A DNA stretch of 58,493 nucleotides, filler included, from Jimgerdemannia flammicorona (Eukaryota), in assembly GCA_003990765.1 (NCBI GenBank). It is 3 parts of 3 records of this genome, joined end to end, with 100 filler letters (N's around TTAATTAATTAA, not from the genome) between each part and the next. Parts side by side here need not be neighbours in the genome. Positions count along the whole stretch, not along the records: positions 39,070 to 58,493 come from RBNJ01001941.1; 2 more parts are not named here. The stretch is one strand, 5' to 3'. Positions 6,326-58,493 of the stretch are shown here, one piece after another. Within the stretch, counting starts at the first letter, position 1; the number at the start of each line of letters is the position of its first letter. The position numbers and the translations under genes are program-made. The notes below the pieces were generated by a model that saw nothing but the letters and a program-made list of their open reading frames with translations, ran no database searches and had not been told where the DNA came from.

Positions 6326-6355
6326 AGATCGACTGATAACAAATCATATTTCATT

Positions 6356-10004: not shown

Positions 10005-10063
10005 TAGGTGGTAATATTGTATACTTATTCATAGACTGGTAATAAAGATAGAGTCTAAGTAAC

Positions 10064-10132
<69 letters not shown>

Positions 10133-11859
10133 GCAACTAGATAGCAACCACAACTGTATAAAATACTCTAGAGACAAGAGTGAATAAACCTCAGTCCAAA
10201 AAGTTCTAAAGCAAAAGACAAGTCTGTTTATTATATTTTGAGAGATATGTCTACTAAGAGCTACTTGATCTAGGAAGAATTATAATACTTAGGAGAAATG
10301 TCCACTCTAAAGTCACTTTTAAGAGATTGTGAACTTTATTTCTTTTCTACTCTGGTCAACTTTTCAATATAAGGAGATTCACTATATTTTTAATTTGCTT
10401 GCTAGATAAGTCTGAAGAATTTGAGAAGTCTATTATATTTTGATATACTTATCAGACTACTATATTGGAAATTCTATTGGAATTTCTGTTGAAATTTTCA
10501 ATAGCTTTGTTACTATATAATAAACTATTATACTAACTGATGAATATTAAAGTGATATTACTTTTTAAATAGTTTAATATATAGCTCTTTAGCTTAATGA
10601 GTATCTAGAGTTCAGTGCTAAATTTAATAAGTAGGTTTTGGTAAAAAAGGAAAGAATATAACAGTTTGTTATATATATAATAACAAGCTACTGGAAATTA
10701 TAATAGAATTTTCAATAAAAATTCCAATAGAATTTATAATAAAATTTCAGTATAATAGTTATAGATACTATATATAGTATAACTATATAGATATATTCAA
10801 TATACTATATTTAGCCATAGTTCCAAATATATAAATACTCTTTATACTAAGTATATTATAATCTTAGCTCTGCTTTTTCTACTCAAAAATAAATAAGTAT
10901 TTTTATCTAGTACTCTCAGATCTGACTTATTAATGATTCTAAGTCTGATCAACTTAGAATATAAGTATGGTACTCCTGCTTAGCATAAGAACCTAAAAGC
11001 AATACTTGGACTATATCTCTATAATAGATATTTAGAACTTAGTGCTTTCTTACAGAATACAGAACTTAGAGCTAATAGTTATCTCTGATTATCTATAATA
11101 TATTAATTCTATCAGTATATAGTTTTATTATACTGAGCTAATTATGTATTTTAAAACCTTTCTCTAATTCTTAAATAACTTAAAGACAGATTGAAAATTA
11201 ATAAATTTATAATATCTTTTCTTTTTTTTCTATTAATAATTCTGAGAAACTATATTTAGAAATAATTTTAAGTTTTATAGTATTATTTAAGAGTTCTTTT
11301 CTTCTTAATAAAAGATATCTAAAACTTTAAATAGTTTTTATATAATATGATATAATAAATAGCTAACTAGATAGTAAGTTGCTCTAATTACTCTTTTTTG
11401 CATTTTGATAGTAAAATATAGTTTTTCAAAGATCTCTATAAGGCTCTTAATAGTTATCTCAGAGAAATATAGTATAAAATTCTAATAAAGTGAGTTCAGT
11501 ATTTTTAGATTCTACTTAGATATACATAATTACTTTTAATAAGTTGGTTATTTCAGCTTCAATCCAATAGTAAAATATATAATATCTTAAAAGATGACTT
11601 CTTAAAGATATACAATGGTCTAAGAGATATGGTAGAAAATTTAATAAACTCAGAGAGCCTTCTTAATTTATCAAATAGTGAGTAGTCCTTTTTAGATAAG
11701 ATCTTAATGGTCTTGTTCTATAGTTTCACCTCAGAGTCTATGATCAATTTTATATTTATACTAAAGAACTAGGTAGTTGGAGGTATTCTTGAGTTATTGT
11801 ATCATAATATGACAATAATTAATGAAGTGTCTCAAATTATCAGTATAAAAGTTCAGATA

Positions 11860-12100
11860 TGTATCGGATGAGAGCAAGCCTTCTGGATGGTTTCAAAGAT
11901 GTAAGGTTCAGGTTGATGGTCTGCTGTTGGTGGGAGAAATGTGAGAATGGGCAAGCTACACTATAAATTGTAACGAGCATATGAGTCATAACCCTTACAT
12001 AAAGTTGTGTTGACTCGGAGGAGGATGTATATACCAGGAACATAATTACACGACTTCGACGCACATGTTCCAAGTGTAAGAGCACATGCCCCTAAAATGG
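11860..12100 (-). pseudogene. 5' remnant of a third Rho GTPase tandem unit
   Basis: ctgctgttggtgggag..gtgagaa..aattgtaacgagc is homologous to 14060-14200 and 15690-15800. It encodes QQQTINLNL and homology breaks off before the P-loop. Confidence 0.6.
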
Positions 12101-19436: not shown

Positions 19437-19536
19437 NNNNNNNNNNNNNNNNNNNNNNNNNNNNNNNNNNNNNNNNNNNNTTAATTAATTAANNNNNNNN
19501 NNNNNNNNNNNNNNNNNNNNNNNNNNNNNNNNNNNN
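19437..19536. other. Assembly gap / artificial linker
   Basis: N run, TTAATTAATTAA (stops in all six frames), N run; 100 nt in total. Confidence 0.95.
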
Positions 19537-19576
<40 letters not shown>

Positions 19577-19581
<5 letters not shown>

Positions 19582-19868
19582 TCTGGAAGGATCATAGAAA
19601 AGAAGAGAAAAGCCAAGAAATAGGTTCTTAGTAAAGATGACTAATAGAATTCTACAATGTTCTAAAAGATTCTATGACTAGCTAAGATAAGATACTTAGT
19701 ATTAAAAAAAGACAAGAATGTTCTAGTAATGTCTTAATATTAAGAGAAGATTTCTAGATATTTAGAAGATACTGGAATATAGTAGAATATTTAGAAAAAG
19801 ACAAGAAAACACTAGAGAAAAGATATAAAAAAGTACTAAGATTAAAATATGACTATGAAATTATTATA
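19577..19868 (-). repeat. 3' LTR of element A (partial; cut off by a poly(A) tract next to the gap)
   Basis: Aligns to 31101-31398 (aaagatgactaatagaattctacaat...gactatgaaatt.ttata). Confidence 0.85.
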
Positions 19869-20194
19869 TATCTCTCTTCTTAAGAACTAATATCTTTATT
19901 GAGTTCTTAGATAATATAAGACTAAATATATTTAATCAAAATTTTTCAAACTTGAATTGGTATATTAGTGAGAACTGGTCATCCTCATATAGAGAAGAGG
20001 GCCTATTACTAGACTAACTAACTGAGAGGAATTCAAATCTAGCTAGTAGCTTTATTTCAGTGAACTTCTTATTTACTAGATATTCTGTTGGTTCTGGGGT
20101 CTCAAAGTAAACTTCCAATATATAAGGTACTGATTATTGTTATAGGTAGTTGATAATCCATAGAAGTTACTATAGAGATTAGATAATACATTTT

Positions 20195-20352
20195 GTCTCA
20201 AAGTCTTAGACTAGGTCTTGAGAGTTCTTAAAATTGACTAGTGGTTTCTAGATAGTATTATATTTGAAATAGCTATATCCATTTGACCAGATATTCAGGA
20301 TAATGATAGTGGATTCATTTGTTAAAAATTTTCTCAACTTTATACTCAATAT
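20195..20352 (-). pseudogene. Chromodomain at the integrase C-terminus of element A
   Basis: EYKVEKIFNK*IHYHYPEYLVKW..(frameshift)..NTI*KPLVNFKNSQDLV*DFE matches the chromodomain consensus EYEVEKILD...EYLVKWxGY...TWEP..NL. Confidence 0.8.
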
Positions 20353-21057
20353 GGTTTTTGATAATCACAGGGGTAGATGGCTTGAGAATTTGACCAGGGT
20401 AAAGTAGTAACTAGTTCTAGGTCTTGAGGTGTGATATATAAAAGACTGGGTGTATCCTCATGGTTTCAGGTAGCTTGAGATAGTAGGAGGATACCAGTAA
20501 TCTCAAAGGGTCTAATATACTTGAGTTGGAACTTATTTGACAAATGATTAACTTGAGATTATATCTTAGATTCTCAGTAAACAGTAGGACTTAATTATCA
20601 ATAGTATAGGTAACATTATAGTATTTCTTATCAGTATACTTGACATGATACTGTTAGGCCTTCTGGAGGTTCACAGTAGCAATCTTGAGTAGTTCTTTCA
20701 TTTTGTCTGTGAGGTTCTTAGTAATAAAGACTTATATTTGACTATTTTTCTTAAAAGAGACTAGATTTGTAGAGATCTCAGAATTTTGACCATAGAGTAG
20801 CCAAAAGAGAGAAAGACTGGTAAATGATTAAACAGTATTATTATATACAAATTCTGTATAAGTTAAATAGTAGTCTCAATTATCTTGCTTATAAGAAATG
20901 TAGTTTCTAAGCATTTGTTCTAAAGTTTTGTTTATGCACTTAGTTTGTCTATTTATTTATAGGCAAAAGGTAATAGATATGGCCAATTGGATTTCCAGAG
21001 TCTTGAAGAGGGTTTGCCAGAAGTGACTGATGAACTTGGGGTCACAGTCACTAATAA

Positions 21058-21061
<4 letters not shown>

Positions 21062-21120
<59 letters not shown>

Positions 21121-36400: not shown

Positions 36401-38969
36401 CTCATGGAGAAATGGGCAGGAGTGATGGAGGATGGGGCCATGACTGATTGGCATATTGCGAGAATCCAGCAGGAGGTGGAGGAGCTCAAAGGGGTGCTAT
36501 GAAGGGAGGAGGAGGAGTGTTGTAGGGAATGGTGGCCTGCCTGTGGTGGCAGGGGCTTGAGGAGGGGGAGAGGCCTACCAGGTTCTTGTCATGGTTGTTA
36601 CAAGTACGATGAATGAGGCAGAGGTGGGAGGGAGCTTTGGACGAGAATGGCAAGCTGGTGGTTGAGACTCCAGCGATTCTGGGCCTATTGCGAACCCAGT
36701 GGGGGAACCTTTGGAGTGAGGAGGAAGGGGAATTAGATGCTCTGGATATTGAAAGGCAGCTGGGGGATTGGTACCCAGACCCTGCGATGGGACTTGGGAA
36801 ATTGGGGGACCCAGTGAGCGGTGAGGAGATTTGCAGAGTGGTGGCCTTAATGAGTAAGGGGACAGCCCTGGGGGAGGATGGTCTCCCCTGGGATTTTTGG
36901 CAGAAGATGACAGGGGTGAGTGAGGTGCTGGAGGAAATGATTGCTATGTGTGATGAAGTTCTTCGGTCTGGTACCTGGATTGGGGGACAGCACTTAGGGC
37001 TAGTCTCCTTACTATATAAGAACAAGGGTGGATGAGAGGATTGGAAGAACTGGCAGCCAATTGTGCTTCTCAACATGGACTGCAAACTGGTGACGAAAAT
37101 CTTGGTGATGAGGTTGCAAGGAATCGCTCAGCAGGTCCTTGGGTTGGAGTAACGTGGGTTTGTTGGTGGTCAGTTGATTCGAGATAGGATGGCCTGGATT
37201 CATGGAGTGATTGAAGGTACCTGGGCAATAGGGGTGGATGGCCGATTGGTGTTTCTGGACCAAGAGAAGGCTTATGATAGAGTGCGGTGAATATGGCTGG
37301 AGGGAGTGCTGAAGCAGATTGGTATCCCCCCAGGGTTCCAAGGTTCATTAATCAGCCTCTTGGAGGACAGTCAGGCAGCATTGGTCATCAATGACCACAG
37401 GGGGGTGACCTTTCCCCTGGGCCATGGGGTACCACAAGGGGACCCCTTGTCACCCATTTTGTATGCCCTTTCCCTGGAGCCACTACTGGATAGAATTCGG
37501 TATAAGATTGGAGGTTTGGACATTCTAGGGGTGAACTGGAAGGTGGGGGCCTTTGCTGATGATATGGTGGTTGGGCTGGGCTCCTTGGGGGATGTTGGAG
37601 AGTTACAGAGAATGGTAGAGTGGTATGAGCGGGGTTCTGGTGCTAAACTAAACTGGCACAAGTGCGAGATGCTGGTGCTGGGTGCTGGAATCATTGGCAG
37701 TGATGTTATTGGGACAGTGGTCCTGGCTGGTGAACCAGTGTGCTACTTGGAGATCTACTTCTCAGTGTTCGGATCTCTTCTTCCCTGGGCATGGTGGGAC
37801 TATAAACTTCTGGAGTGGGGTAATGTCTTGCTGTGATGGGGAGGCCGGCATATATCCCTTACCAGAAGGGTGATGGTGTTGAATGTGTACTGGATGCCGA
37901 AGCTGTGATATGTTGGATATCATTTGGATTTCCCAACCTGGGTGGTCAAGGGGTTGTTGAAGATGGCGAGGTCATGGATTTGGGGAGGGTGACAGAGCCA
38001 GGTTGGTTGGGAGGTGCTCACACTACCCTTGAAGAGAGGTGGGCTAGGCCTAGTAGACTTTACTAAATGGCTTCTATGTCTGAGAGCCTGGTGGCTGTGA
38101 AGGGCAAGTGAGCTCAGGGGTCAGGAGTGGGTGCCGCTCATGCAGCAGTTGTGGGAGGTTCAATACTCTCCACGCAGTGGCTCTGGTGACCTGCTTGCAA
38201 TGGTGGCCATGGAAGGGAGTAGGAAGATATGGTTTATGGGCTTTTGGTAGGGGGTGGTGGATAGTGCTAAGAAAATTGGACTTTGGTGGCAAGGTGACAA
38301 GGCCGAGGAGGTTTGGGGACCATGGATGTGGTGGTGGGACAGGCTTCTAATGGGTGGTGTTTTGGTGGAGGATTTTCAGCTTGGCAAGGGTCTGGAGTGC
38401 CTGTGAGGCCTAGGTAGCGACCTGCGGCCAGAAGCCTAGCAGAGGGTTGGAATCGGGGAGGAGTGGGATTGGAATGGACTTTGGCTTTGGAGCAAACAGG
38501 TGAGGCAGTGGCTGCCCCCCAAGTTCTGGGTAGTGTAGTAGCAGATCTTATGGTGGAATGTGATGTTGAACTATTGGTCTGATCACTTGGTGGATGGTGG
38601 AGTGTTCGAGTATAAGGATTGTTTCAATGTGGGTCAGGAGGGAGGAGTGGTACAAACATCTGAACATTGGCTTGGCAAGTGTGCAGTTTTGGGGGAGTTT
38701 TGGGGATGTATTATGGACAGGATTGGGCTAAGTGCCATGGAGGGGGGGGGAGGGGAAAGATGGGGAGAGCTTCACCAGTGGCTGGTGGGTGGGGTTGGGG
38801 ATGAATAGCTGACCCTTGGTTGGGCCTTGGCTATGTGAGTTGGAATGGCTGGACATTGGGTTTATGTATTTGAGGACAGGCATCGGGTTGGGATTGGTGA
38901 CAGAGTGGCATGATGGGAATGGTTGCTGTTGGACATTTTGAATAGCTGGTGGCAGGGTTGGGGGATGGG
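33416..38969 (+). mobile_element. L1/Tx1-like LINE, copy 3 (subfamily beta), 5' end intact, 3' end lost in the gap
   Basis: 5' motif taacattcgggtgacacaagactcagac. ORF1 at 33497-~35413. ORF2 from 35445 with GGDFN, SRID, SDH, GVPQGDPLSP and AFADD. Confidence 0.95.
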
Positions 38970-39069
38970 NNNNNNNNNNNNNNNNNNNNNNNNNNNNNNN
39001 NNNNNNNNNNNNNTTAATTAATTAANNNNNNNNNNNNNNNNNNNNNNNNNNNNNNNNNNNNNNNNNNNN
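38970..39069. other. Assembly gap / artificial linker
   Basis: N run, TTAATTAATTAA, N run; 100 nt. Confidence 0.95.
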
Positions 39070-40232: not shown

Positions 40233-40610
40233 AGGATTTGGATTGGAGGATTCGGTTGAAGGATTCGGATGAGGATTCGGATTGAAGGATTCGAATTGGA
40301 GAATTCGAATTGGAGGATTTGAATTGGAGGATTCGAATTAAGTGATTCGAATTGAGTGATTTGGATTGAGTGATTTGGATTGAGTGATTCGGATTGAGTG
40401 GTTCGGATTGGAGTGGTTCGGATGGGTGATTCGGATGGGTGATTCGGATGGGGTGATTTGGATGGGGCGATTCGGATTGAGTGATTCGGATTGAGTGATT
40501 CGGATTGGGGTGGTTCAGATGGGTGATTCGAATGGGGTGATTCAGATGGGGCGATTCGGATTAAATCTGAGTTGATCCGGATGGCTTCGGATTTGAGATT
40601 CGAATCAAAC
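40233..40610. repeat. hAT subterminal tandem repeats (GATTCGGATT / GATTCGAATT core, ~13-15 bp period)
   Basis: More than 20 imperfect copies visible, CpG largely retained. Confidence 0.9.
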
Positions 40611-43199: not shown

Positions 43200-44662
43200 T
43201 ATTATGTAGTAGTTACTGAGTTCTTCAAATATGTCAGATTCTCTCTAAAATGTATCTCTTAGACTAACCTCAAGTTTGTTATAAGTAAGTTCTTATTAGA
43301 GTACCTTCTCAAGGTCTTATAGTCCTCAAAATTCTTATCTTTAAACTGTCTTGTTATCTTTTAGATTACTTATATAGAATTGAGGATAAGTGAACTTAAC
43401 TAACTTTATTTCGAAGGAAATAAGAGGGGTATTTATATAAAATATAATTCAATAGTTGCTAAGATATAAAGCTAAATATAAATTTCAATAACCAAATAAA
43501 ATACTGAAACACAGAAAACTATAGTTATCAGTATAGATTCCAGTATTGGTATAGATAGTTGCACAAGTTTAGAGTACTGGTAGAATTCAGTATCACTAAG
43601 AACTTTAAAGCAGAATATTTAGGACTATAGGGGCTTCATCCTCATCATTGCTGAAGGAGATGAGATCTGCAAACATTTTATCCATCTCATTACATAGGTT
43701 GCACATTTCATATATATCATGTGGGATGACATAATCACTGATGACATCATCATATTCAGCAGTAGTGGGGGCTCTCCAATCTATGCTATTTTTTTCTACA
43801 AAATAGAAAACAAATATAGGGTCTTAGAGAGGTCTAATCTGGATGCTGGGGCCTTGGAATACTGAGATCAATTCTTGTAGAAATTGATCTGGATTGTCCT
43901 GGAGGATGGAATATCAGAACTCTTCTACCTTATCACTAATAAGAGTAATAGTGGACTAGACCTCTGTAGCTACCATGGCTTCTAGTACATTGATATAATA
44001 GGCTGATAGATCTCTGAAGTCTGAGACTTTGGTATATTCCAAGTTAGAGATTAATTATGGTATATGCCTGAAGATCTGATGAATCTTCTTGACTGTTCTT
44101 ATTTTATATATATTCATGAAAGTGGTATCTTGTAGCTCTTGAGGACTGGCTTGAGGGATTCCTAGCAGAGAAGATTTTCTATTTCATATTCTTGCTATAT
44201 CTGGAGATATTCAGTAGCAATGGTAATTCTTATTTCCATCTTATGGTAGTAGAGAATATAATAATAAGAGTCACCAGTACCTAGGTTGATACTAGGAGTT
44301 CTTGTAGTATGGGTCCTTATGGCTCTTTGGATATCTTGAAACATTCTTTTCTGAACTGAGGGGCCTTAGTGATTTCTTGATCTTGAGGTTTGGTGAGTAG
44401 TAGGCATTTTGTTTATAATAAGTCTTTGAGCTATTTCAGAATTAACAGGTCTTGTTGGTTTGCTGCTACTGTGATTCCTTGATTCTTCTTTTATATTCCT
44501 CAAGATGTTTATATTGTGGTCTCAATGACTCACAGTTAGTCATCATTACTCATCTTATAGCCTGAGTGAGTCATGTTATGATCTTCTTATACTCTGATCT
44601 GGTGGCTTACAAGGAAAGACTATCTCTTATGCTAATGTCATCATTCTGAGATCACCATTATA
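43200..44662 (-). mobile_element. Solo LTR of element B family, inverted
   Basis: Reverse complement aligns end to end with 45107-46733 (starts tataatggtgatctcagaatga, ends gaagaactcagtaactactacataata). Flanked on both sides by atat(at). Confidence 0.92.
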
Positions 44663-45348
44663 ATATATATTCTGAGTACATTTTTATTCTACAGTATTTT
44701 GAATTAAAGTATTCTGAGTGTATTTGCATCTGGATATATTTATCTTCTGCAGTATTTAGTATAGATATATTATAAGTATATTATTTTCTATAGTATTTAA
44801 AATTGATATATTTAGAATATATCTTTCTCTATAGTATTCTATTTCAGATATATTTCAGATTGATATATTTTGGATAAAGCTAACAACTTAGTAATTTCTC
44901 ATGTCAAAAATTATTAAAAATCTTTCATACCTCTCTATCACTAATTTATTTACAAAGTATATATCAAATATATAAATATCTTTCTACTACTCCTTTACCT
45001 TCATTACTAAATCTTGAGCTTCAAAGTAGGGCATCATATATATATTATAGACAATTATATCTATACTAATGATATTAAAAAAATTTAACTGAGTAGCTAT
45101 ATATATTGTAACAGTGACTCCAGAATGATGATATCAGCACAGGAGACAGTCTTTCCTTGCAAGCTACCAGATTGGAGCACAAGAAGATCATACAGCATAC
45201 AAGATGAGCAATGATGACCAACTGTGAGTCACTGTGACCACAGTATAAGCATTCTGAGGAATATAAAAGAAGGATCAAAGAACTGCAGTAACAGCAACCA
45301 ATAAGACCCACTAATCCCAAAATAGCTCAAAGACTTACTACAAATAAA

Positions 45349-46194
45349 ATACCTGCCGCTCACCAAACCTCAAGGTCAAGGAACCACCAAGGCATCTCAG
45401 TTAAAGAGAGGATGTTTTAAGACATCAGAAGAGCTATGAGGACCTGCTCAAGAAGGACTCCTAGTGTCAACCTGGGTACTGATGACCCCTATTACTATAT
45501 CCTCTACTGCTGTGAAATGAAAACAAAGATCACTATTGCTACTGAATACCTCCAAATGTGGCAGGAGTATGAAATAGGAAACCTCTTCTGCCAGAAGTTC
45601 CCACAGGCCAGCACTCAAGAGCTATAAGATGCCACTCTCATAGATATACATAAAACAAGGATAGCTAAGAAGATCCATCAGATCTTCAGGCATGTACCAT
45701 GGTTAATCCCCAACTTGGAGTATGTTAGAGTCTCAGATTTCAGAGACCTGTCATCCTGCCATATCAATGCACTAGAAGCCAGAGTGGCTACAGAAGCCCA
45801 GTCCACTATCACCCTCAATAGTAATGAAGTAGAAGACTTCTGGTACCCCATCCTCCAGGACAACTCAGACCAATTCCTACAAGGATTGATCTCAGTATTT
45901 CAAGACCCAAGCATCCAGGTTAGACCTCCCCAAGACCCCACATTTGTTCCCTATTTTGTAGAAGAGAACCTCATAGACTGGAGAGCTCTAGACCTCCTTT
46001 CCACTGCTGAATATGATGATGTCATCAGCAATGACATCATCCTATACAATATATGTGAGACACATGACATGCATAAAGTATGCAAAACATGTAACCTACA
46101 TGATAATGATGATGAATTCGTGGACCTCATCTCCTTTGAAGACATCCTGACCTCTGACAATGAAGCCCCCATAGTTCTAAACATTCTGCTCTAA
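45349..46194 (+). pseudogene. LTR-internal ORF (~281 codons), unknown function
   Basis: Track ORFs 45436-45627 and 45715-46194 are in one frame. Stops TAA at 45418 and 45625 read CAA in the solo LTR, and ATA at 45349 reads ATG there. Confidence 0.75.
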
Positions 46195-46207
46195 GTCTCT
46201 TGGTTAT

Positions 46208-46365
46208 ATTGAATAATGCCAGCACCAGTATTCTGATGTAACACTGAATAATACTAGTACTAGAATTCTGATGTAATACTGAATAATGCTAGTACTGGTA
46301 TTCTGATATAATACTGAATAATGCTAGCACTGGTATTTTGATGTAATACTGAATTATACCAGCAT
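46208..46365 (+). repeat. 35-bp tandem repeat, about 4.5 copies, in LTR B
   Basis: Unit actgaataatgctagtactggtattctgatgtaat starts at 46208, 46243, 46278, 46313 and 46348. Confidence 0.92.
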
Positions 46366-46799
46366 CTTGAACCTGTATAACCATCAGTACCAACCCTGGA
46401 ACTTAGCAGTTTTTTCTGTTCTGGCATTTTATTTTAGTTATTTGAATTTATATTTAGCTTTATATCTTAGCAACTATTGAATTATATTTTGTATAAATAC
46501 CCCTCTTATTTCCTCTGAAATAAAGTCAGTTCCAGTTCACTTACATATACATACTTTCTTGCAAGCAATCTAAGAGATAACAAGACAGTTTAAAGATAAG
46601 AAGTTTGAGGACTATAAGATCTTGAGAAGGCACTCCAATAAGAACTTACTTATAACAAACTTGAGTTAGTCTAAGAGATATATCTTGAAGAGAATCTGGT
46701 ATATTTGAAGAACTCAGCGATCACTATGTGACAATTTGGTACCCATTAGCTGGTGATTCAAGACAAATCCCTCACTTTTAAGCTGAAAAATAAACAACT

Positions 46800-49700
46800 C
46801 CCACAACAACTACCCTGACTACAAGAGTCACCCCTGTAAGAATTCAAGATAAGATAGAAATATATCTCCCTACATTCTATAGATATACTACTGAAGAGTC
46901 AATTCTGATCTTTATTGAAGACTTTGAACAATTTGCTGCCATACAAGCTCTTGGTGTAGATGCACAATTGGCTTTTCTACTAGTCAGTCTCAGAGGACCT
47001 GCCAGAGACAAGTTCAATGCAACTACTATTGCTGATAATGGTGCAGCCAAACTTGCCAACATGAAGGCCTTCTTCAGAACAATATACTATACTGAAGAGA
47101 TCAAGCAAGCTCTCAAGGATCAATTCAATACTATCTGCCAGGAACTTAGTAAAGATCCCAACTTATTCTATACCTGAATCTGTCACCAGATTATCTTGGC
47201 TGACTATGATGATGCCCTCAAAGAACAAATAACAGATTCAACCTTCCTCAAAGGAGTTTATCCTGAAATTGCTCTAGCAATCTGATCTACCCCAGCTGTA
47301 CTGACCCTTGATCAGAAAGTGGTCTTTGCACAGAGATATTGGACTGCCAGACACCCTGTCAAACACTCAATGGAGAAAATAACTGGTATTAAGATGGAGC
47401 CATCAAAGCCAACTAGTATCATACCTGTCATAGTTGTAAACAGACAACCATCTCCACCTACCCCCAAGGTAGCCAAAGCTGACCCAGTGGAGGAACTCAT
47501 CAAGCAGTTTGCTGAGATGACTGCACACCTTGGTGATGTTGTTAGAGAAGTCCAAAGTGCCAACAGGAGACCAGTGCAGAGATTTTCAGCTACTACAGAA
47601 GAATGCAATATCACATACTTCAGATATAGAGAAGAAGGCCACTATGCAAAGAATTGTATGACTGAAACAAGACACAAAGCTCAACCAAGCAATACTAGCA
47701 GAACCAGAGAACAAACTAATACAGTAGTCATTGAGGAGATTGGTGATACTGATAATGAAGAATACTATGAGGAGCTTCAATTCTACTCTACTACTGAAGG
47801 TACCAGAACCTGGTCCAAGCCCTATGACAAGAAGAGCAACAGCAAGTCAGTTGGAAGACCAAAGAAGACCCTAGCTGTAACTATTCAAAGCAAGACCCAA
47901 CCCAAGAAGATTGATCAAGATATGGAGTTAGATTAAGCTGCTTGCCAAATAATAGAAGATACTATTTCAGTCTTAGGAGAAAATGAAAGCAAGAAGAAAC
48001 AGAAGCTGTGCAAGACCAAGATCCACTAGTATGATATCTACAAAGATCTTAAGGAACAGAAGGTCAATACTACTTTTAGACAACTAGCTGAAGTCCCTGC
48101 CTTCAGACAGCAGTTGAGAGTAGGACTTACAACTACTGCCAAGAATCAAGAGTATAAGATTGTAGAAGCTCACAATGTACAAAAAGAATCTGAAAACTCA
48201 GGTGAAGAATCCAAAGACCAGTGCAAGACATCAGCCTATACCCCATATTAGATTGAAGACTGTATCTTTGATGCCATCATTGATACCAGTGCTAAAGGAT
48301 ACCTTATGAGCAAGAAGGCAATTGACTGTCTAGATTGAGATATTGAAGAGTCCACCAAGATGATCTATGTTACAGCAGATGGTACATGAGCTATCCCCCT
48401 TAACAAAATCTGAGAAGTCCCATCAAGATAGAAGGAGCTACTATCCCAGTAGATGTGATTATTACAAGTACTACCAACTATGACATTCTCATTGGCAATC
48501 AATGGCTTCACAAGGCCAAGACCATCATTGACCTCAATGCCCAGAAGATGCAGATCAACTATAGAGGAAGAAAGGTACAAGTCTCTATCAATGTCCATAA
48601 AGGAGTTCTACCAGACATAGAGGAAGGAGATGAAGAGAACACAGAGGTCTTCATGCACTTGGTGAATAAGAACAAGAACAAGACACCCAAGCTCTCAGAT
48701 GAGCAGTAGTATAACAAGATCATCAATGACTATGCCCCTCAAGGAAGATGCCCCCATGGTACTAGAATGTACTGCTCTGAACACCTGAATGACTGCTGGT
48801 CCTGTATCAGTGAAGTCAAGAAAATCTGCCAACAGAAACATGAGCAAGAAGCTGCCAAAGCAAAAAGGAAAGCCAAAGAAGATGATCAGCCTCTTGAGCT
48901 TCAGGCTGACAGTAACAATGAGAAGGAATAAGAATCAGATATTACCCTCAAGGTCAAGAAGTTTCACCCTAAATACAAAACTGAAAGAGCCATAGAAATG
49001 GACCTTGCTAGCATTCAAGATACTACCCTTGAACCACAGACCACCACCCTACTTAGCACTGGAATTGGAGTCAAGTTGCCAGAGAACTATGCTGGAATTA
49101 TCAAGACCAGGAGCAGTCTGGCCAAAAGTAAAATCTCAGTTAAAGGAGGAGTAATTGACCCTGATTACACTGGTGAGATCTTTCTTATAGTCAGGAATCA
49201 CAACTCCACCACCCCATTTGAAGTTAAGAAGCATAACAGGATTGGCCAGATGCTGATCTATGAAATCAAGAAACTCAAGATCACTGAAGCCATCAAACTC
49301 ATCAAGACCAAGAGAGAAGAACAAGGCTTTAGATCTACTGAAAGAGGAGTCTATGCCATTACTAAGATTACTAAACTTGAATACAAGAAAGACAAGGACC
49401 AGAATAAGCACACATATACTATTGAAGAAAACTTTCCTCTGGAAGAACAACTTCTCAAGATCCTGCACCAGAATGAAGGAGTACTTGCTACAGACTTCAG
49501 AGATATCCACAATCAAGAACCCAAGTACTACCACAAAGTTGATACTGGTGATACTAAGCCCATCTACCAGAAAGCCAGACCCATACCACCTGTCTACAGA
49601 GAATGGCTGCGAGCAGAACTCAAGGAAATGGAAGAAGCTGGAATCATCAAGCAAGCTATCAGTCTCTGGGCTTCACCCATTGTCCTCACCCCAAAGAAAG

Positions 49701-52051
49701 AAAGCAAGTCTGGAGAGTTTGCACCAAGACTCTGCATTGACTACAGAAAGCTCAATGCCATCACCAAGAAGGATAGGCAGCTCTTGCCAAATATTTAAGA
49801 AATCCTTACCACTCTTGGAAGTGAAGCCAAATACTACACCACCTTGGATCTGTTCTCAGGCTTTCATCAGATTGGTCTCACTTAAGATGCCAGTGAGAAA
49901 TTAGCTTTCATCACATCTGATGCCACCTATATCTACCTGCAAATATCATTTAGAATGTGCAATGCCCTAGCAAGTTTTTAGCAAATGATGAACAGAGTCT
50001 TCAGCAATGAAATCAGAAAATGGCTCTTTGTCTATATTGATAATGTGATCATCTTCAGCAATACTATATAGAAATATATCAATCATATACAGCTAGCCCT
50101 CAAGAAGCTCAAGGAGCATGGCCTCTACATCAAGTCCAAGAAATGTAAGTTTGCAGCTCAAGAAATCACCTACCTAGGATACCTCATCAACCAGACCAGA
50201 ATCCATACAGACCCTATGAAGATTGAGGCTGTTGCAGTCTACCCAAGACCCAGAACAACCACAGAAGTCCATGCCTTCCTTGGACTGGCCAGTTACTATA
50301 GAAGATTTATCAAAGGATACTTCAATATTGCAGCACCTATCTATGAGCTACTGAAGAAGGAAACTAAATTCAAATAGACCAAGGAGTACTAAGAAACCTT
50401 CAATGAACTCAAGATCAGGTTGACCCAAGTACTTATCCTCAGAAGACCAGATTGGAACCTAGAATTCATCCTGCAGACAGATGCAAGTACTATAGGACTT
50501 GGAGCAGTCCTAGCTCAGAAGAAAGATGGACATGAATATATTATCTCCTATGCAAGCCAAGGTACCTGTAGAGTAGAACAGAACTACAAGTCATACAAGC
50601 TTGAATACTTAGCAGTAGTTTGGGCAGTAGATAAGTTCTACTACTACCTAGCTAGAAAACACTTCACCATTCAAACAGACCATTCTGCTCTTGTCTGGCT
50701 ATTCCACACTCTGAACCCTAAAGGAATATATACCAGATAGATCTACAGGCTACAAGAGTATGCCTATACTGTCAAGCACTGCTCAGAAAGAGCCAACACC
50801 AATGCTGATACACTCTCAAGAACACTCTGAAACACTTCCATCAAGACTATTTAACATGAATAAGGAGCTATACTATGGATTAATCAGCTACCTTGGGCAG
50901 CAGAAGATGCCCAACCACCTCAAACCCTGGACAATCACCATCATCAACTGGACTTGGAAACAGTTTGAACTAGACAATACTATACTCAGAAAAGGAGGAA
51001 AGCTAGTAATATCTGAACACAAAAAGTATCAAGTAATGAAGGAAGTACATGAGCAAGGATACTTAGGAGGAACTAATACATATAACAAGGTGAGAAGAAC
51101 CATGTGGTGGCCTAAGATAGAAGAAGACCTGTGCCAATTTGTCAAAGGATGTGACAAGTGCCAAAAACAGAAACAAGATCAGTAAGACCAGGCACCCAGG
51201 TCATCAAGAATCAAGCCTATCTCCTTCCACCACATTGTAATGGATATCATTGGGCCACTACCAGTAATATTATCAGGAAACTGCTATATTATAGTTATTG
51301 TAGACCTCTTTACCAAATGGATAGAAGCAGGAGCATTATAAGAAGCCAATGCCCTCTCTATAGCTGACTTCCTGCACTGAGAAATCATCTGCTACTATAA
51401 GACACCAAAGCAAATCACAACAGACTATGATACAGAATTTGTCAATAGATTCTATAAGATAATATATCAGAAATACAAGATCCAGCACATCAAGACCACT
51501 GCATACCACCCTCAAGGAAATGGACAGATAGAAAGAACCAACAAGACCCTCAAGAACATCCTGGTGAAAATCTCAGAGACATATGAGAATTGGGATAACT
51601 ATCTCCCAACCACCCTCTCTATCCTATGAGATATATAATCACAGAGTATACACTTTATCCCAAGAGAACTGCTCTTCAGAAAAGAAGATTCTGATGGAAC
51701 CTCAGCTACAAATCTAGACCTAACTTAGAGATGAGTTGATGCAGAAATCTGGAGACTATACCAAATCAGAAAGAAGGCTGAAGATTATATCACCAAGTTA
51801 CAAGTACTAATAAGGAAGAATGCAGAAAAGAATCACAAGACCCTAGAACCCATCCAAATTGGAGAAAAGGTCCTACTGTATCAAAATATGGTAGAAGCCT
51901 CATGGTTATGAAAACTGGAGCCCAAATGAGAAGAACTCTTCTATGTATAAAATATCAAGAAAACTATCTTTTGGCTTAGAAAAATCTCAGAGATCATATT
52001 GCCTACCACAGTATATAGGAACAGACTCAAGAAGTACTACAAACCTATATA
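46800..52051 (+). pseudogene. gag-pol polyprotein of element B (gag-PR-dUTPase-RT-RNase H-integrase), disrupted; start approximate
   Basis: Zinc-knuckle relic ITYFRYREEGHYAKNC; protease AIIDTSAKG (~48280); RT WASPIVL, LCIDYRKLN, VYIDNV; RNase H ILQTDASTIGLGAVL; integrase HEQGYLG..CDKC, MDIIGPLP, TTAYHPQGNGQIERTNKTL. Gag and protease read in one frame. Confidence 0.93.
48940..49348 (+). pseudogene. dUTPase domain of element B, between protease and RT
   Basis: MDLAS (motif I), STGIGVKLPENYAGIIKTRSSLA (II), GGVIDPDYTGEI (III), NRIGQML (IV) and REEQGFRST (V), in frame with RT in ORF 48998-49798. Confidence 0.95.
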
Positions 52052-52406
52052 AGAGAAGTAAAATGTGATGGCCACCCACAAGGTTCTAGTCTGCAAATTA
52101 TAACAGCATGTCCTGTGACCAGCAGGCTATCTGTCTGGACTATTCTCTAAGAGATATGGTACCAGCAACTACTCATCCATGAGACTTTTAAAGCCAGAGG
52201 AGTTTGAACTATCAACTGATTGGTCAAGATCAGAATCAGGCCCTTGCTCTATATGAAGGGAGCAACTCTTCACCATCATACCAAAATATAAAGAGAAGAC
52301 ACCAGTTCATAAATATCCTTTGCCAGAGGTTATGAGATCAGCAAATGTTTCAGAACCAGACCAATGAATAAGGATGCTCAAGAAGATCCTTATTCAGGAG
52401 GAAGAT

Positions 52407-52620
52407 GTAATGGTGACTCCAGAATGATGACATCAGCACAAGAGATAGTCTTTCCTTATAAGCCACCAGATCAGAGCACAAGAAGATTATATGGCATATG
52501 CGATAAGTAATGATAACCAACTATAAGTCACTGTGACCACAGTACAAGCATCTTGAGAAATATAAAAGAAGGATCAAGGAACTACAGTAACAGCAACCAA
52601 CAAGACTCATCAATCCCACA
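52407..52620 (+). repeat. 3' LTR of element B, 5' portion only
   Basis: Aligns to 45107-45320, preceded by the polypurine tract, and ends at the LINE 5' end. Confidence 0.92.
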
Positions 52621-52626
52621 GGCCAT

Positions 52627-55600
52627 ATCTTTCTCCGGTAACATTCAGGTTACACAACCCTTTGGCAACACTTTCAACACAGTTTCTGGAGAAAAGCTAC
52701 TAGTATCATGGCGACCAATGAGCATCCGGAGGTGCATACTGGGCAGGGTGGCCCTGGAGCATTTGAATGGCAGCAAGTGGGGAGAGGCCCCGGCTTGGGG
52801 GGAAGTATGAGGGGCCTGCTGGCAGGGGGCTGTGGTGGAAGAGGGGGCAGAGCTGGAGGTCAAGGGTCTGGCAGGGTGAGCTTTGCAGAGAAGGTGAAGG
52901 GGGGTCGGCAGAGAGCTGGACTAGAGAGCTGGCTGAGAGGGAGGAAGGTACCAGTGGTAGCTTCCAGGCAGCAACCTCTTGGGGGTGCCTCTCTGGAGGG
53001 CCATAGGAGTGGAGCTGGGGGGGTAGCGGCTGGGGCAGGGACTGCTGATGGGGGTGTGACGAGTGATCTGGAAAAAAATCTAGATGGGACTGCTGATGGT
53101 GAGCCGAGCAGTGGGAAGGGCATGAGGCCCGGGGACCTGGTGGATGGTGTAACAGGACTGGCGGTGGCTCTGTTACTCAAGAAGTCAATCTCGGTATTCG
53201 CAGTCACACTGTGCTTCCAGGGCTTAGCAGTGATGGCGAAAATGGTGTTGGGGCTTATCACTAAGCAGGTGGTGGGAGTGGCTTCGGTGAAGTTTCTGAA
53301 GGGACTGGAGGGGGTGGAGGTGGGATTTGAGGAGGTGGAACCGCTGGAGGAGGCACTGAAGGTTGGATTAGTGGTTGGGGAGGTGTGCATTCCGATGGCG
53401 AGGTGTTTGAAATGGGATCTGAGGGTGGTCCAACTGCTGGTGAAAGGAGTACCCATGGTGACGGTGATGGAGACAAGGAAGAGAGTGGAGGATGTCATGG
53501 TGGAGTATGGAGAGGTGGTGGATATCGGATTCAGGGTCTGGGAAGGGACCACACTCAGGACTGGGGATGTGGATGTGAGGATTCAGCTGGCTGGGAAAGA
53601 GGCTACCAGGAAGACGAGGGACTGGCCTTTGGTGTTGGTATGGGGGGCTTTCCTGTACAAGGTGACACAGGTGAAAGGAAGTGAAGAAGAGAAGGAAGAT
53701 TTATTGGAAGCGCTGGAGGAGCTGGATGGGGCTGTGGAATGGTGAGCTAAGGCCTGGAAGATTTTCGAGGAGTCAATGCTCCTGGAGGTGGTGGATGGAA
53801 AGAGGATGCAAGTGGACAAGGTGCAATGGGAAAGGGCTCAGGGGCGGAAGAGGCAGAAGGATTTGCTGGCTAAGCTGGGGGGTGGACCACAGAAGGATGC
53901 GAGCATGAAGACGGGTACAGAAGGGGCTGGAGCAAGTGTCTGGGCTGGTGAGCAGAGTGGGAATGAAGGGGCAGGGTCAGGGAAGGCTAAGGAGGTGAAG
54001 ACTAGAGACCTATATGCTGATGGCACCTTGGAGGTTTGGGATGATGGCTGGGAGAACTCCCCCACCCCTTCCCCTCTAATCAGGTGTGGCCCGGCTTCCA
54101 GGAACAAGCCTGGGGAGGATGTGACGATGCTGGGGACCCAGCAGGTGAAATTCAGCATTCCGGAGGTGTTGGATGGGGACCAAGTAGTGGCGGCAGGGGA
54201 GGAGGAACTGGTGGATGTCCCAGAGGTGTGGGATGAGGACATGAGTGCGGGAGTGGACACCACAATGCTGGATGGAGAGAGGCCGGCGACCCCTGGTGGA
54301 AAGGAGGTGGGGAACCTACTTTGGATGTGCTGGATGATAAATAACCTGGTGGCAGAAGAGCTGGGGGAGGTGGACTTGCATGGGATGGGTGACGAGCACT
54401 GGACAAGAATTTTGCAGGGAGAAGGAGTGGCGATGGCACTGAAGGCAGAAATTCTTGTGGTGTATCTGGAGGAGGAAGGGTATGAGGTGGATAAGGAGAG
54501 GGAGGCAGAGTTGGTAGTGGTCGCTGGGGAGAAGGCTGAGTACTGTTGGAACAGGCGTCATGGGTTGCAGCTTTTGGCAGGAGGCTTGCATCGAGTACCA
54601 AGAGGAGTTTGAGGAGAAGGCTGATGAGGAGATGAATGAGCTGTTGGCTGGACTGGAGGCTCAGAGGACTGAAGAGGAGGAGGTGATGGCGGAATATAAT
54701 CTGGACATAGCACAGGAGGAGAGGGGCATAGAGTAGTAGGAATTGATTGAGAACAAACTGTATTTTATTATGAACAGTACAACCAACATTTTTTCTTTGA
54801 ACATGAATGGGCTAAGGGGCACAGTTAGACACAGGAACATTTTTATTTGGTTGAAGGGATTGGAGGCTGATCTCTTCCTCTTGCAGGATGTCAGGTGCAA
54901 GGATGATGCTGATAGGATGGAATGGACTAAGGAATGGGGTAGTATGGCGATTTGGAACAGCAAGGTTGGGATTCTGGTTCGGAAAGGCAGAGGGGAGATA
55001 AAGGATGTGAGGAGCTGGGGAGAGAGACTGGTCTGGGGTGAGTGGATTTGAGCAGGTTGGGAGCCGGTCACAGTTGGCTCCTGTTACTGCCCTGCGGTGC
55101 AGGGGGAGCATGTGGATTGGGTGAAAGGGCTCCTGGAGAGTGGGATCCTTGCTGAAGCTGGGTTGGATATGCTTGGAGGAGATTTCAATATGGTTCGAGA
55201 GGTACGGCTGGATAGAACTGATGGAGGATGGGGTGTGGAGAGCAGGAGTGGGGGGTTAGCAACGTGGGAGGAGGTTGAAAGGCTAGGAGCACTGGTGGAT
55301 GCTGGTAGGGAGCACTGGGGGGACAGGAGAGTATATACGCATTGGGCTGGAGGTCTGGGGACAAGGATTGACTGGATTCTGATGGCTGACTGTTGGGGCC
55401 ACGATGTCTGGAAGGTGATAGAGGTAGAATGGTGTCCGTGGTCGGATCACTAGGGCCTCTTGAGACAGGGGTGTTTTGGGGGAAGTAGAGATGGGCCTGG
55501 GCATTGGCGCCTGAATTCCTCCTTGTTAGATGATGAGGTCTGGTGGGAGAAGTGGGCGAAAGACATTCAGCTGAAGGTGGCGAATTGGTGGCAGGAAGGG

Positions 55601-58493
55601 GCCGCGATTGGGGTTTGGTGGATGAGGATGAAAGAGATGGCCAGGATGTATTGGAGCGAGGTTGGCAGAGTGGCTGGGAAGCAGCGAAGGCAGAAAGTGC
55701 ATTGGGCTTCTACTAGATTGGCTAGGCTCCTGGAGGAGTGGGCGAGACTGGCAGCAGTGGAGGGAGACGAGGATTGGAGAATAACAAGGGTGAGGATGGA
55801 GGTTGGGGAACTGCAACAGGTGCTGCGGGAAGAGGAAGAGTCAAGGGTGCAAGGCCTGGTGGCACAGCTTCATTGGTAGAGGGTGGAGGAAGGGGAGAGG
55901 CCTTCTAAGTTTCTCACAAGGACACTTCGAGCGAGAAGGGTACAGCAGTGGTGGGAAGGGGTACTTGACTCGGATGATGTACTAGTGTATGGTGTACAGG
56001 ACATCCTTGGAATCCTGAAGGCGCGATGGAGTGGATTGTGGAGTGAGGAGGAGGGTGGGGCAGATGCTACAGCCATTGACCAAATATTAGAAGATTGGCA
56101 CCCACCATAAGCTGAGGGACTAGATGACCTGGTGATGCCTGTAAAGGAGGACAAGATCCACCAGGTTCTTGCCGTGACAGCCTTGGGTACGGCGCCTGGG
56201 GAGGATGGCCTCCTCTGGGATTTCTGGAAGTGAATGGTTGGAGTCCCGGGCATATTGGGGGAGTTGACAGTACTGTGTGACTCTATATTGCAGTCAGGGA
56301 GATGGGTGGGGGAGCAAGACCTTGGGCTGGTGACACTGCTTTATAAGAACAAGGGAAGGCGAGAGGATTGGAAGAACTGGTGGCCGATAATGTTGCTAGA
56401 TATGGGCAGGAAGTTGGTGACTAAGGTGGTGGTTGCAAGGCTACAGAAGATGGCCCAGCAAATTGTGGGTGGTGAACAGAGGGGCTTCATAGGGGGTCAG
56501 CTCATTAGAGATGGCATGGCCTGGGTACATGGAGTTATTGAAGGTGCTCAAGCCTGTGGACTAGATGGGCATCTTGTCTTCTTGGATCAGGAGAAGGCTT
56601 ATGACCAGGTACAGTGAGTCTGGCTGGCAAAAGTTTTAGATAGAATTGGAGTTCCGGCCCCATTTCGGGTGGCGATGGTCAGCCTACTGGAAAGGAGTAG
56701 GGCTGTGCTCGTGTGCAATGGGCATCGAGGGGTGGCTTTCCCTCTGGGTAGGGGAGTGCCCCAGGGGGACCCACTGTCCCCCATTTTGTATGCTCTTTCC
56801 TTGGAACCTCTCATAGACAGGATTTGGTGGAGGATCATGGGGCTCTCTATCTATGGAGTTGGCTGGAAGGTTGGAGCCTTTGCGGATGACATGGTGGTTG
56901 GTTTGGGAGTGACTGCGGATGTCAAGGAGCTCCAGAAGACAGTGGAGTGGTATGAGGAGAACTCTGGGGTGAAGCTGAATTGGCACATGTGCGAAACAAT
57001 GGTGCTGGGCAATGGCTTGGTGGGCGAAGAAGTTATTGGAACAATTGTCTCCACCGGAGAGGCAGTGTGGTACTTGGGTATCTATTTGTCGCTCTATGGG
57101 TCTGTTTTGCCCAGGCTGTGGTGGGAGCAGAGGATTGGAATTTGGGAGGAGGACCTGTGGGGTTGGGGGGGTAGACACTTCTCTCTGGCAGGAAGGATCT
57201 TGATTTTGAATGTTTACTGGCTGCTGAAGCTGTGGTATTTGGCCTATCATCTGGACTTCCTAGCCTGGGTGGTGAAGAGATTGGTGAAGGTGGCCAAGGG
57301 ATGGATTTGGGCTGGCAGACGGAGTCAGATTGGTTGGGAGACTCTGTCCCTACTGGTGGCAAGAGGTGGTCTTGGGTTGGTGGACTTCCCCAAAAGACTA
57401 CACTGCTTACGGGCTTAGTGGCTGAGGAGGGTGGTGGAGTTGCATGGCAGGGGCTGGGTCCCCTTGCTGCAGAAGATATGAGAGAGGAGGACATCACCTA
57501 GAGGCTTGACTGGGGATCTTCTTTCATTAGTTGGGCTTCAGAACACTGCGCAACTGAGATATAAAGACTTCTGGTAGGGTATAGCTGAGGGGGCACACCA
57601 CATTGGTATTCGCTGGCGAGAGGATGAGGGGGAGAGGGCTTGGGGCCCGGCGATGTGGAGATGGAATAGCATTCTTCTGGGAGGCATGCCTTTACTGGAG
57701 TTCAATATTAGCAATGGTATCGAATGCCAAAGGGGACCAGGCTAGGATCTGTGGTCTAGTGGTTGGCAAGGAGTTGGAATTGGTGAGGAGTGGGACTGGC
57801 ATGGAGTTTGGACCTGGAGTGCCGCAGTGAAAAATTGGATGCCGCCAAAGTACTGGATAGTCTGGTGGCATATGCTGAGGAGGAATGTGATGCTTAACTT
57901 TTGCTCAGGACACCTTGTTGTCAGGGGCTGCTTTGACTGCGAGGAGTGCCATAATGTAGGGCAGGAAGGGGGATTGGTACAGATGCTGGAACATTGGCTA
58001 GGGGAGTGTGAGGTGTTGGGAGACTTTTGGCAGGCTATTGGAGACTGCTTGGGGGTAAGGCGTAGGAGTGATGATGCACAGGGGAGGTGGGAGGACCTGA
58101 GGGATCGATTGATAGGAGGGGTAGGGGAAGAGTAGATTATGCTTGGCTGGGCATTAGCTATTTAGATTGGGCTGGCTGGCCACTGGCTATTTGTATTTAA
58201 GGAGGAGAAGCGACAGAGCTTGGGGAGCTATTTAGCAAGGTAGCAGTTCCTTATGGAGGATACCTTGACAGGCTGGTGGCTTGGTTGGGGGCTGCAGGGG
58301 GGTTGGAGGCACCACTTGGTGGTGAAAATCTGTGATCAGAGTGGTGGGAGAGTTGGAGTTGTTGGTGAGAGGATGGTCTTTATATGTGAAGAGGTGGGGT
58401 GGGGCCCCCCGATGGGGATCGGTTAGTGGGTGGTGATATTGTATACTTATTCATAGACTGGTAATAAAGATGGAGTCCAAGGGACTATAAAAA
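52627..58493 (+). mobile_element. Full-length L1/Tx1-like LINE, copy 4 (subfamily alpha)
   Basis: 5' end atctttctccggtaacattcaggttacacaacc as in copy 1. ORF1 at 52708-~54739. ORF2 at 54770-58426 with GGDFN, TRID, SDH, AFADD and CEEC..HWLGEC. AATAAA and the start of poly(A) at the window end. Confidence 0.95.

Follow-up and report, generated by a model that had tools for sequence, protein, structure and literature searches.

Element B is a decayed, dUTPase-bearing Ty3/gypsy retrotransposon of Jimgerdemannia flammicorona, lying within a 58,493-nucleotide stretch of that genome (assembly GCA_003990765.1; three parts of three records joined end to end, filler included) that we refer to as the window. 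The subject of this report is a single reading frame inside the 1.6-kb long terminal repeat (LTR) of this element. Judged from sequence comparisons, the frame is a genuine protein-coding gene of about 270–290 codons, kept by selection while the family was active.

Element B and the Layout of Its LTR

Direct-repeat LTRs with TG...CA ends bracket the internal region of element B, and a polypurine tract (PPT) and a site resembling a primer-binding site (PBS) are both present, as is characteristic of Ty3/gypsy elements (Table 1). Pfam matches to dUTPase (48932-49340, PF00692, E 1.9e-24), RT_RNaseH (50393-50740, E 2.2e-29), and Integrase_H2C2 (50715-51185, E 1.8e-15, in an integrase region spanning 50715-51629) follow the pol order of the gypsy type—protease, reverse transcriptase (RT), RNase H, integrase; an ESM Atlas search with the dUTPase region re-found dUTPase only. 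The original prediction had described a 1.6-kb LTR, which stands with its end refined: the terminus of the 5' LTR (...TGTGACA) falls at 46733, and likeness to a solo LTR of the same family reaches 46735. The 3' LTR stub is 85% identical to the 5' LTR across 213 nt; a long interspersed nuclear element (LINE) interrupts it at 52619.

Table 1. Features of element B, its LTRs, and the LTR-borne gene; positions count along the whole window.
Feature	Position	Strand	Description
Element B		+	Decayed Ty3/gypsy retrotransposon, dUTPase-bearing
5' LTR of element B	45107..46735	+	TGTAAC start; ~1.6 kb
TATA1, TATAAAAG	45262..45269	+	87 nt (first base) ahead of codon 1; proposed gene promoter
Leader motif, AAAGACTTACYACAAAYAAA	45329..45348	+	Directly 5' of the start codon
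LTR-borne gene	45349..46194	+	281 codons + TAA stop
Four tandem 35-bp repeats	46203..46377	+	Between gene stop and TATA2; possible enhancer or binding array
TATA2, TATAAATA	46492..46499	+	Proposed genomic-RNA promoter
AATAAA poly(A) signal	46519..46524	+	~27 nt after TATA2; kept in solo LTR
PBS-like site, TGGTACCCATTAGCTGG (TGGTACCC...)	from 46737	+	After 5' LTR; TGG start; read from sequence alone
gag-pol, decayed	46794..51629	+	gag (from 46794), protease, dUTPase, RT, RNase H, integrase
PPT, AGGAGGAAGA	52396-52405	+	Precedes 3' LTR
3' LTR stub of element B	from 52406	+	Start TGTAATGG; first 213 bp, TATA1 included
Inverted solo LTR, same family	43200..44662	-	Carries the same gene, without internal sequence
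Third family member, P0010-like	11341..11862	-	Strongly decayed, more distant; tblastn with P0010, E 1.3e-8, 29% over 166 aa

The 5' LTR and the solo LTR share one order of parts: LTR start, TATA1, leader, gene, 35-bp repeats, TATA2, AATAAA, U5, and LTR end. The original prediction had raised the worry that the gene segment might be an insertion; because two independent LTR copies whose ends match both have it at the corresponding position, it is LTR sequence instead. A contig from another copy of the element, found in the public run X2, agrees with this layout—its PPT (...TTATTCAGGAGGAAGA) runs straight into the first base of the LTR (45107). All of the frame falls ahead of TATA2 (46492) and within the LTR, the layout of a U3 gene if TATA2 is the genomic-RNA promoter.

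The tandem repeats downstream of the gene vary among copies. The 35-bp unit is single in the solo LTR and present four times in the 5' LTR, and joints in the contigs of other copies skip 71-195 nt in this region, so the copy number differs from one LTR to the next. Contigs from public runs were placed on the window at a likeness of at least 80%; their depth is counted per contig and was not used to compare LTR with internal copy number, and their cover is thin at 45970-46357, where the joints lie.

Element B and the solo LTR stand head to head, both adjoining ATATAT, and are separated by a 444 bp spacer (44663-45106) that is AT-rich with recurrent TATTCTGAGT / CAGTATTT words. The solo LTR is bordered by ATATA-like sequence on either side, and its C>T/G>A decay is heavy. 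This head-to-head arrangement may reflect a (TA)n target preference or nested insertion into an older repeat.

The Reading Frame and Its Decay in the Window

A single frame of about 281 codons was predicted within the LTR, and it can be read directly in the 5' copy. Its lesions are an ATA at codon 1 and TAA triplets at codon 24 (45418-45420) and codon 93 (45625-45627), with no frameshift; the remaining five frames of the same stretch hold 15, 30, 16, 10, and 24 stops, and the chance of finding two stops or fewer is ~1e-6 (Poisson, with a mean of 19 from those five frames). In the alignment, the solo LTR supplies ATG, CAA, and CAA at the three broken places, just as had been reported. Its own frame is more decayed, having a 1-nt deletion and additional in-frame stops. 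Public contigs read C at 45625, giving CAA (20 contigs in run X1, 8 in X2, 1 in X3, and 6 in X7), and the second stop is therefore private to the 5' LTR copy of the window; the variant listing behind these counts covers 40 of 1184 places, including 45625 and neither 45351 (start) nor 45418 (first stop).

The window copies were killed by C>T/G>A decay. Between the 5' and solo LTRs there are 263 transitions and 57 transversions across 1482 aligned bases, an excess indicating that both have suffered this decay, the solo copy more so. C>T changes precede A at 59 of the 103 sites with a known next base, and the Arg-to-Cys and Arg-to-His differences from relatives are a sign of CpG decay too. Canonical repeat-induced point mutation was considered as the sole cause and dropped, since the Arg changes indicate CpG decay as well and two decayed copies cannot separate the causes. 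A ciliate-type code in which TAA is read as Gln was also ruled out: CAA stands at the second stop elsewhere and at both stops in the solo LTR, and stops of all kinds break gag-pol.

The Cys/His-rich stretch quoted in the original prediction, CETHDMHKVCKTC (46040-46110, codons ~231-254), lies mostly within a 24-nt insertion from 46076 and its variable surroundings; it is missing from the solo copy and unmatched in database relatives, and is not a conserved feature of the family.

Relatives of the Protein

Intact relatives of 138-342 aa are present in public protein sets. A word-indexed search of 5.8 billion proteins returned 296 candidates, five of which match (E 5.5e-115 to 1.1e-35, 62-76% identity); these close relatives are 161-271 aa long and lie on contigs of 778-1625 nt. 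P0003 is a complete frame of 271 aa that begins MPAAR. A profile search of 1.84 billion representatives gave seven matches at E<=0.001, one of which (P0011) was discounted as a low-complexity repeat. The other six include the distant members P0008, P0009 (on a contig of 4848 nt), and P0010, which are 200-342 aa long and share 27-56% mutual identity, and a borderline member, P0012. Profile–profile comparison with hhalign links the close family to P0010 (probability 98.0, E 2.7e-13) and, over the N-terminal 125 columns only, to P0012 (probability 94.9, E 4.5e-8). A profile-neighbour search with a wide alignment found nothing beyond P0009 and P0012, both already members.

The sole relative obtained as DNA is L001, a metagenome contig of 1535 nt with an intact frame of 291 codons; this frame has no stops, compared with 6-22 in the other five. 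L001 came from scans for related loci, in which 0 of 315 metagenome pattern matches and then 1 of 29 (L001 itself) proved related, along with 0 of 15 in genome_contigs and 0 of 21 in viral_contigs. Longer or fused forms, or a cellular homologue, were sought among 3198 candidates of 600-2000 aa and none was found, which is weak evidence.

A third family member is present in the window itself (Table 1). As this P0010-like copy is so distant from the LTR-borne gene, two diverged gene lineages coexist in the genome. It sits in DNA of 24% GC that adjoins a LINE poly(A) tract (10065-10130), and weaker matches to P0008 and P0009 lie nearby.

The family is also seen in soil. Parts of the LTR were found in nine soil metagenome runs from six studies (best share 0.20), and contigs on the element number 258 to 4550 per run in four runs from four studies. 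This soil occurrence, the transition-type decay, the mix of gypsy elements and LINEs, and the dUTPase of element B all fit a host that is probably a filamentous fungus; several of these traits are also truffle-like, which is suggestive at most.

Selection on the Protein

The comparison between the window and L001 reaches deep into the history of the family. The two proteins are 41.9% identical over 222 aa (E 4.9e-49), while at the DNA level blastn can match the gene in no more than three patches, each of 30-45 nt. Over 264 codons, the nucleotides agree at fractions of 0.515 / 0.655 / 0.409 for codon positions 1, 2, and 3, and the alignment scores 428 in frame vs 91 and 110 when shifted. Estimates of dN/dS are 0.60/1.86 by NG86 (0.54/2.39 in the core) and 0.55/1.30 by LWL85, for an overall ratio of about 0.2-0.4; the ratio is rough because dS is saturated, and neutral decay of the window copy inflates dN, which is a weakness in our case for selection although the true value is for these reasons lower if anything.

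The two window copies, which are ~80% alike, record a more recent divergence. Their differences fall 55 / 41 / 87 by codon position (chi-square p = 1.1e-4), and the fractions that differ per site with C or G in either copy are 0.36 / 0.37 / 0.54 vs 0.42 in non-coding LTR. Synonymous changes make up 72 of the 158 transitions, vs 54.3 +/- 5.0 expected if the transitions, with the observed count of each type, are scattered at random (P = 0.00015). Indels between the copies measure 9, 24, and 9 nt, apart from the one 1-nt deletion.

Among the tests that the original prediction proposed are whether the frame is open across copies and whether dN/dS lies near 1. Other copies and relatives are open (P0003, L001, and further family members), and the ratio against L001 is well below 1 by both methods. 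Open diverged copies, dN/dS < 1, the codon-position pattern, and in-frame indels are together the marks of a gene under purifying selection. On this comparative evidence, the frame encodes a protein that was once under such selection, both deep in the history of the family and during the divergence of the subfamilies in the window.

Promoter Motifs and the Leader

The LTR contains two TATAAA motifs and no more, at 45262 and 46492, and both bear out the original prediction, which placed one TATA about 85 bp upstream of the frame and a second, with AATAAA, downstream at 46492-46524. TATA1 is shared by the 5' LTR, the 3' stub, and the inverted solo LTR, the three copies of this LTR that the window contains. 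In L001, TATAAAAG stands at 296, 80 nt ahead of the ATG, compared with 87 nt in the window. Between TATA1 and the start runs an A/C-rich leader with no ATG in either sequence. Its last 20 nt (AAAGACTTACYACAAAYAAA) hardly differ between window and L001 (86.7% of 30 nt by blastn, for 45329-45357 of the window and 355-384 of L001), and the remaining DNA has diverged past alignment. The conservation of TATA1 and leader is what a working core promoter and leader would be expected to show.

Elsewhere, the 20-nt leader motif was found at five loci in prokaryotic metagenome-assembled genomes and two viral loci, which we attribute to chance, with no tblastn relative at E<0.01. With 91% identity to the solo LTR, the block holding TATA2 and AATAAA (46428-46531) is one of the best-conserved stretches of the whole LTR. 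A second AATAAA at 45343 is a private C>T product, since the solo LTR and L001 carry C there.

Position of the Gene in L001

L001 shows the gene beside retroelement sequence once more. Its first 54 nt match a motif at the end of pol that lies ~115 nt before the PPT of element B, and the two are collinear. This pol-tail motif (52 nt, RPSALYEDGQF-like) is found at L001 3-54 and in the window at 19958-20009 (-) and 52236-52290 (+). The minus-strand occurrence belongs to element A, a second decayed gypsy element, where it follows a chromodomain remnant and is 81% identical to L001. We considered element A (minus strand, ~19583-20400) as another carrier of the gene and rejected it, as it has the pol-tail motif only and the 288 nt of its LTR before a LINE poly(A) are without TATA1 or leader.

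The LTR boundary in L001 can be read in two ways. In a MAFFT alignment, a purine-rich stretch of L001 and TTACATAATCAG align onto the PPT and LTR start of element B; the L001 site is without TG. At L001 1252-1275, the stop codon is followed directly by GGAGGGAGGAT and TGTAATAAG, which resemble a PPT and an LTR start (TGTAAT). In the window, the 35-bp units begin with TGTAACACTGA, which is identical at 10 of 11 bases to the LTR start TGTAACAGTGA (45107-45120). In the ancestor, the LTR may have started downstream of the gene, and only afterwards have grown upstream to include it.

Structure and Possible Function of the Protein

In members of the family the N-terminus is basic, the core is helical and conserved, and the acidic tail carries two conserved motifs, DLIxF and (V/I)LNF; the charge overall is acidic. 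The acidic tail had been claimed for the window protein from the start; in P0003 the first 60 residues carry a net charge of +8 and the last 60 one of -14. Modelling with AF2 yields a helical core, whose mean pLDDT is 64.1 (pTM 0.57) and which reaches 67-94 in blocks between model residues 51 and 140, and a tail that is disordered.

No domain was recognised in the original prediction, and wider searches give the same answer. In Pfam, the window protein has no match at E<=0.1 and 12 members have none at E<=1, a noise-level match to ATG5_HBR aside, and sequences in the PDB give no match at E<=10. Foldseek comparison of two models with the PDB and BFVD found nothing at E<=0.001, a wide VIA-align search nothing at Z>=5, and the best ESM Atlas feature score (0.83, TM <= 0.33) was uninformative. 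With the core model, ~38 of the 50 VIA-align matches listed are helix-turn-helix regulators by title; their Z of 2.7-3.4 (best Z overall 3.9) is below the level of a fold claim and may reflect merely a common helical arrangement.

The protein is a member of an orphan family, and we tentatively suggest that it could be a family-specific, trans-acting regulator of the LTR, either a transcriptional activator or an anti-silencing factor; this is a possibility that we hold at low confidence. A candidate target is the variable array of 35-bp repeats that separates the gene from TATA2. A bolder and more speculative version, which we think unlikely, makes every LTR, solo copies included, an autonomous gene for a family-specific DNA-binding regulator with a helix-turn-helix-like helical core and an acidic tail, which would bind the 35-bp repeats of its own LTR and activate the genomic-RNA promoter or shield it from methylation. 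Solo LTRs would then be not inert scars of recombination but a growing, dispersed pool of genes for the trans-acting factor, sustaining the activity of the family, and the hypervariable tail and repeats would co-evolve and be subfamily-specific.

Proposed Expression of the Gene and Alternative Explanations

The explanation we consider best, and somewhat probable on the evidence above, is that the LTR carries a selected gene with its own transcript from TATA1, that TATA2 drives the genomic RNA, and that the product has, tentatively, a regulatory role. From TATA1 (45262), a monocistronic mRNA would be initiated near 45290-45300. This mRNA, of ~1.25 kb, would open with the short A/C-rich, ATG-free leader, continue through the gene, and terminate at the normal AATAAA of the LTR (46519). 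The start of the genomic RNA would be set by TATA2, which lies shortly before this AATAAA, a placement that would exclude the signal from the 5' end of the genomic RNA and retain it at the 3' end; the one AATAAA would then serve both the gene mRNA and the 3' end of the genomic RNA. It is the conservation of TATA1 and leader, together with the spacing of TATA2 and AATAAA, that leads us to favour two promoters sharing one terminator. Each LTR—5', 3', or solo—would be a small stand-alone gene, and transcription through the U3 of the 3' LTR would, in addition, place the gene at the 3' end of each genomic RNA. We infer both the firing of TATA1 and the expression of the gene from solo LTRs.

Several observations weigh against this explanation, besides the saturated dS noted above. 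All three LTR copies in the window are dead, and the gene is absent from the visible part of the 3' LTR of element B, where the LINE cut precedes it. The PPT-like sequence and TGTAAT right after the L001 stop mean that in the L001 lineage the gene could be internal and not LTR-borne. Our sampling of relatives has an ascertainment bias, as protein databases hold open-frame copies only. In the 5' LTR, a transcript from TATA1 would cross TATA2 and could interfere with synthesis of the genomic RNA. As for function, no domain, sequence, or significant fold match in Pfam, the PDB, Foldseek, or VIA-align supports one; the helix-turn-helix hint from VIA-align is not seen with the full-length model, and the ESM Atlas model of P0003 is poor (pLDDT 0.35).

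The alternative that survives best, although we regard it as rather doubtful, is that the gene is real but that its expression follows the retroviral route alone, as with MMTV sag, nef, or env. It would be read from U3 in the 3' LTR, as the 3'-terminal part of the genomic RNA or of a spliced subgenomic mRNA, either of them started at TATA2 in the 5' LTR; TATA1 would be no promoter, and solo LTRs would be silent. It is established retroelement biology that the U3 of the 3' LTR is always in the genomic RNA, and by eye the window has a branch-point-like ACTAAT and an ATAG 20-35 nt before the start, as well as a GTGATT after the PBS-like site. L001, however, is without a comparable acceptor at the corresponding place, and TATAAAAG, its spacing, and the ATG-free leader have been kept at 42% protein identity—features that a spliced route would not need.

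It is improbable that TATA1 is instead the genomic-RNA promoter, which would leave a U3 of ~185 nt and make the gene the first frame in a very long R (~1.25 kb). TATA1 is kept in all copies, and the sequence does not forbid a long R; however, the AATAAA at 46519 would then terminate most transcripts while still in the 5' LTR, short of the PBS and gag, whereas a TATA2 ~27 nt before AATAAA is the classic arrangement for excluding the signal from the RNA 5' end. The TATA2 block is 91% conserved, and an upstream frame of 281 codons would be expected to hinder translation of gag.

Last, and very improbably, the frame could be a non-functional passenger (a chance open frame in young copies, or a captured fragment of a host gene without a role), for which one may cite the lack of a known domain or confident fold and the fact that only about a dozen database members were found, every one on a short contig in databases that list open frames only; against it stand protein conservation that outlasts the DNA signal between the window and L001, a dN/dS of 0.2-0.4 with identity falling in codon positions in the order 2 > 1 > 3, a recent divergence marked by in-frame indels and a synonymous excess, the adjoining retroelement pol tail in L001 too, a second, divergent lineage in the same window, and, weakly, the absence of a longer or cellular homologue among the 3198 candidates.

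Comparison with Known Systems

Retrotransposon LTRs are treated as non-coding control DNA and masked in annotation, and a solo LTR passes for a dead remnant; this view is altered if an LTR contains a selected gene with promoter motifs of its own. If our explanation of an LTR gene with its own TATA1 transcript is true, the element has a third gene that is duplicated at each insertion and survives LTR–LTR recombination, and its product could be supplied in trans by thousands of solo copies. A retrotransposon would here have an arrangement so far tied to complex retroviruses, as in sag of mouse mammary tumour virus (MMTV) and Tas of foamy viruses. The product belongs to an orphan protein family, new and abundant in sequence data from soil; if it counteracts silencing or activates the LTR, it would offer a handle on how such families escape genome defence.

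The closest analogue, in layout only, is MMTV sag, a complete frame of ~300 codons contained entirely in U3, which gives each LTR a copy and puts one at the 3' end of the genomic RNA. MMTV is a mouse betaretrovirus, not a retrotransposon. The sag product is a type II membrane glycoprotein expressed mainly by splicing, whereas in element B a conserved TATA lies directly upstream of the gene. Neither the window protein nor the 12 members match the MMTV superantigen family in Pfam.

Foamy viruses offer a likeness to the possible circuit. Their accessory genes are 3'-terminal and extend into U3, and an internal promoter in env drives Tas/Bel1, a regulator of ~300 aa with an acidic C-terminal activation region that then activates the LTR promoter. 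The likeness would be a two-promoter circuit with a separately driven accessory gene, and the regulator role in our case is a guess; the foamy virus is a retrovirus, its promoter is in env and not in the LTR, and there is no sequence or fold similarity. VANC proteins of the plant VANDAL DNA transposons are family-specific, bind short tandem motifs in their own element, and relieve methylation. They may be a functional analogue of the LTR gene product, although they come from DNA transposons of plants and are unrelated as proteins.

Additional open reading frames (aORFs) are known from plant LTR retrotransposons such as Grande; some of these extra genes are transcribed from a promoter of their own and encode nuclear proteins (PMC7264820). 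In the portions of that review available to us, they are described as internal—ahead of gag or in the interval from pol to the 3' LTR, and often antisense—and the phrases 'in the LTR' and 'within the LTR' do not occur (PMC7264820). The plant aORFs thus differ from the LTR gene in their internal position, their plant hosts, and their unrelated proteins.

Among fungal elements, brtn of Boty/BcGypsy1 is reportedly antisense and internal. In the sections of the source that we drew on, this gene of a gypsy element from Botrytis is an extra one of unassigned function (bioRxiv 10.1101/2021.04.13.439636). Both it and the LTR gene are extra genes in gypsy elements, and there is no evidence that they are related. 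The dUTPase-bearing fungal Ty3/gypsy elements (PosPlaTy3-5, Phanerochaete elements, and Tmt1 of Tuber) have a backbone like that of element B. PosPlaTy3-5 of Postia carries its dUTPase between protease and RT, as element B does, and a figure legend in the same paper lists an 'add. ORF' with no place given; the passages at hand do not mention an LTR gene (PMC2864245).

A limited search of the 'LTR ORF' literature by title and abstract, in which the MMTV superantigen is dominant, returned no gene inside a retrotransposon LTR. One 'LTR ORF' report is on another subject, and its 'LTR ORFs' are gag-pol frames.

Other Features of the Window

Four GC-rich LINE copies with RVT_1 and endonuclease matches lie at 4000-10130, 21000-27000 (-), 33000-39000, and 52619-58493. 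Their coding strands have a skew of G over C of 0.30-0.58 per kb, and unlike the surrounding gypsy copies they show little C>T decay. One LINE cuts the 3' LTR of element B at +213, and the poly(A) of another (19537-19582) abuts the LTR of element A at ~+288. An assembly gap at 19444-19535, made of two N runs around the linker TTAATTAATTAA, adjoins a long poly(T/A), and joins across it are untrustworthy.

Two frames at 13178-15682 (-), in an island of 44-49% GC, have weak Ras-family matches (E ~2e-4, at or just under the Pfam cut-off) and are probably an intron-split host small-GTPase gene between repeats. A tandem array occupies 40272-40563, with a 14-nt unit (GGATTCGAATTGGA-like) and at least 12 overlapping 97-nt registers.

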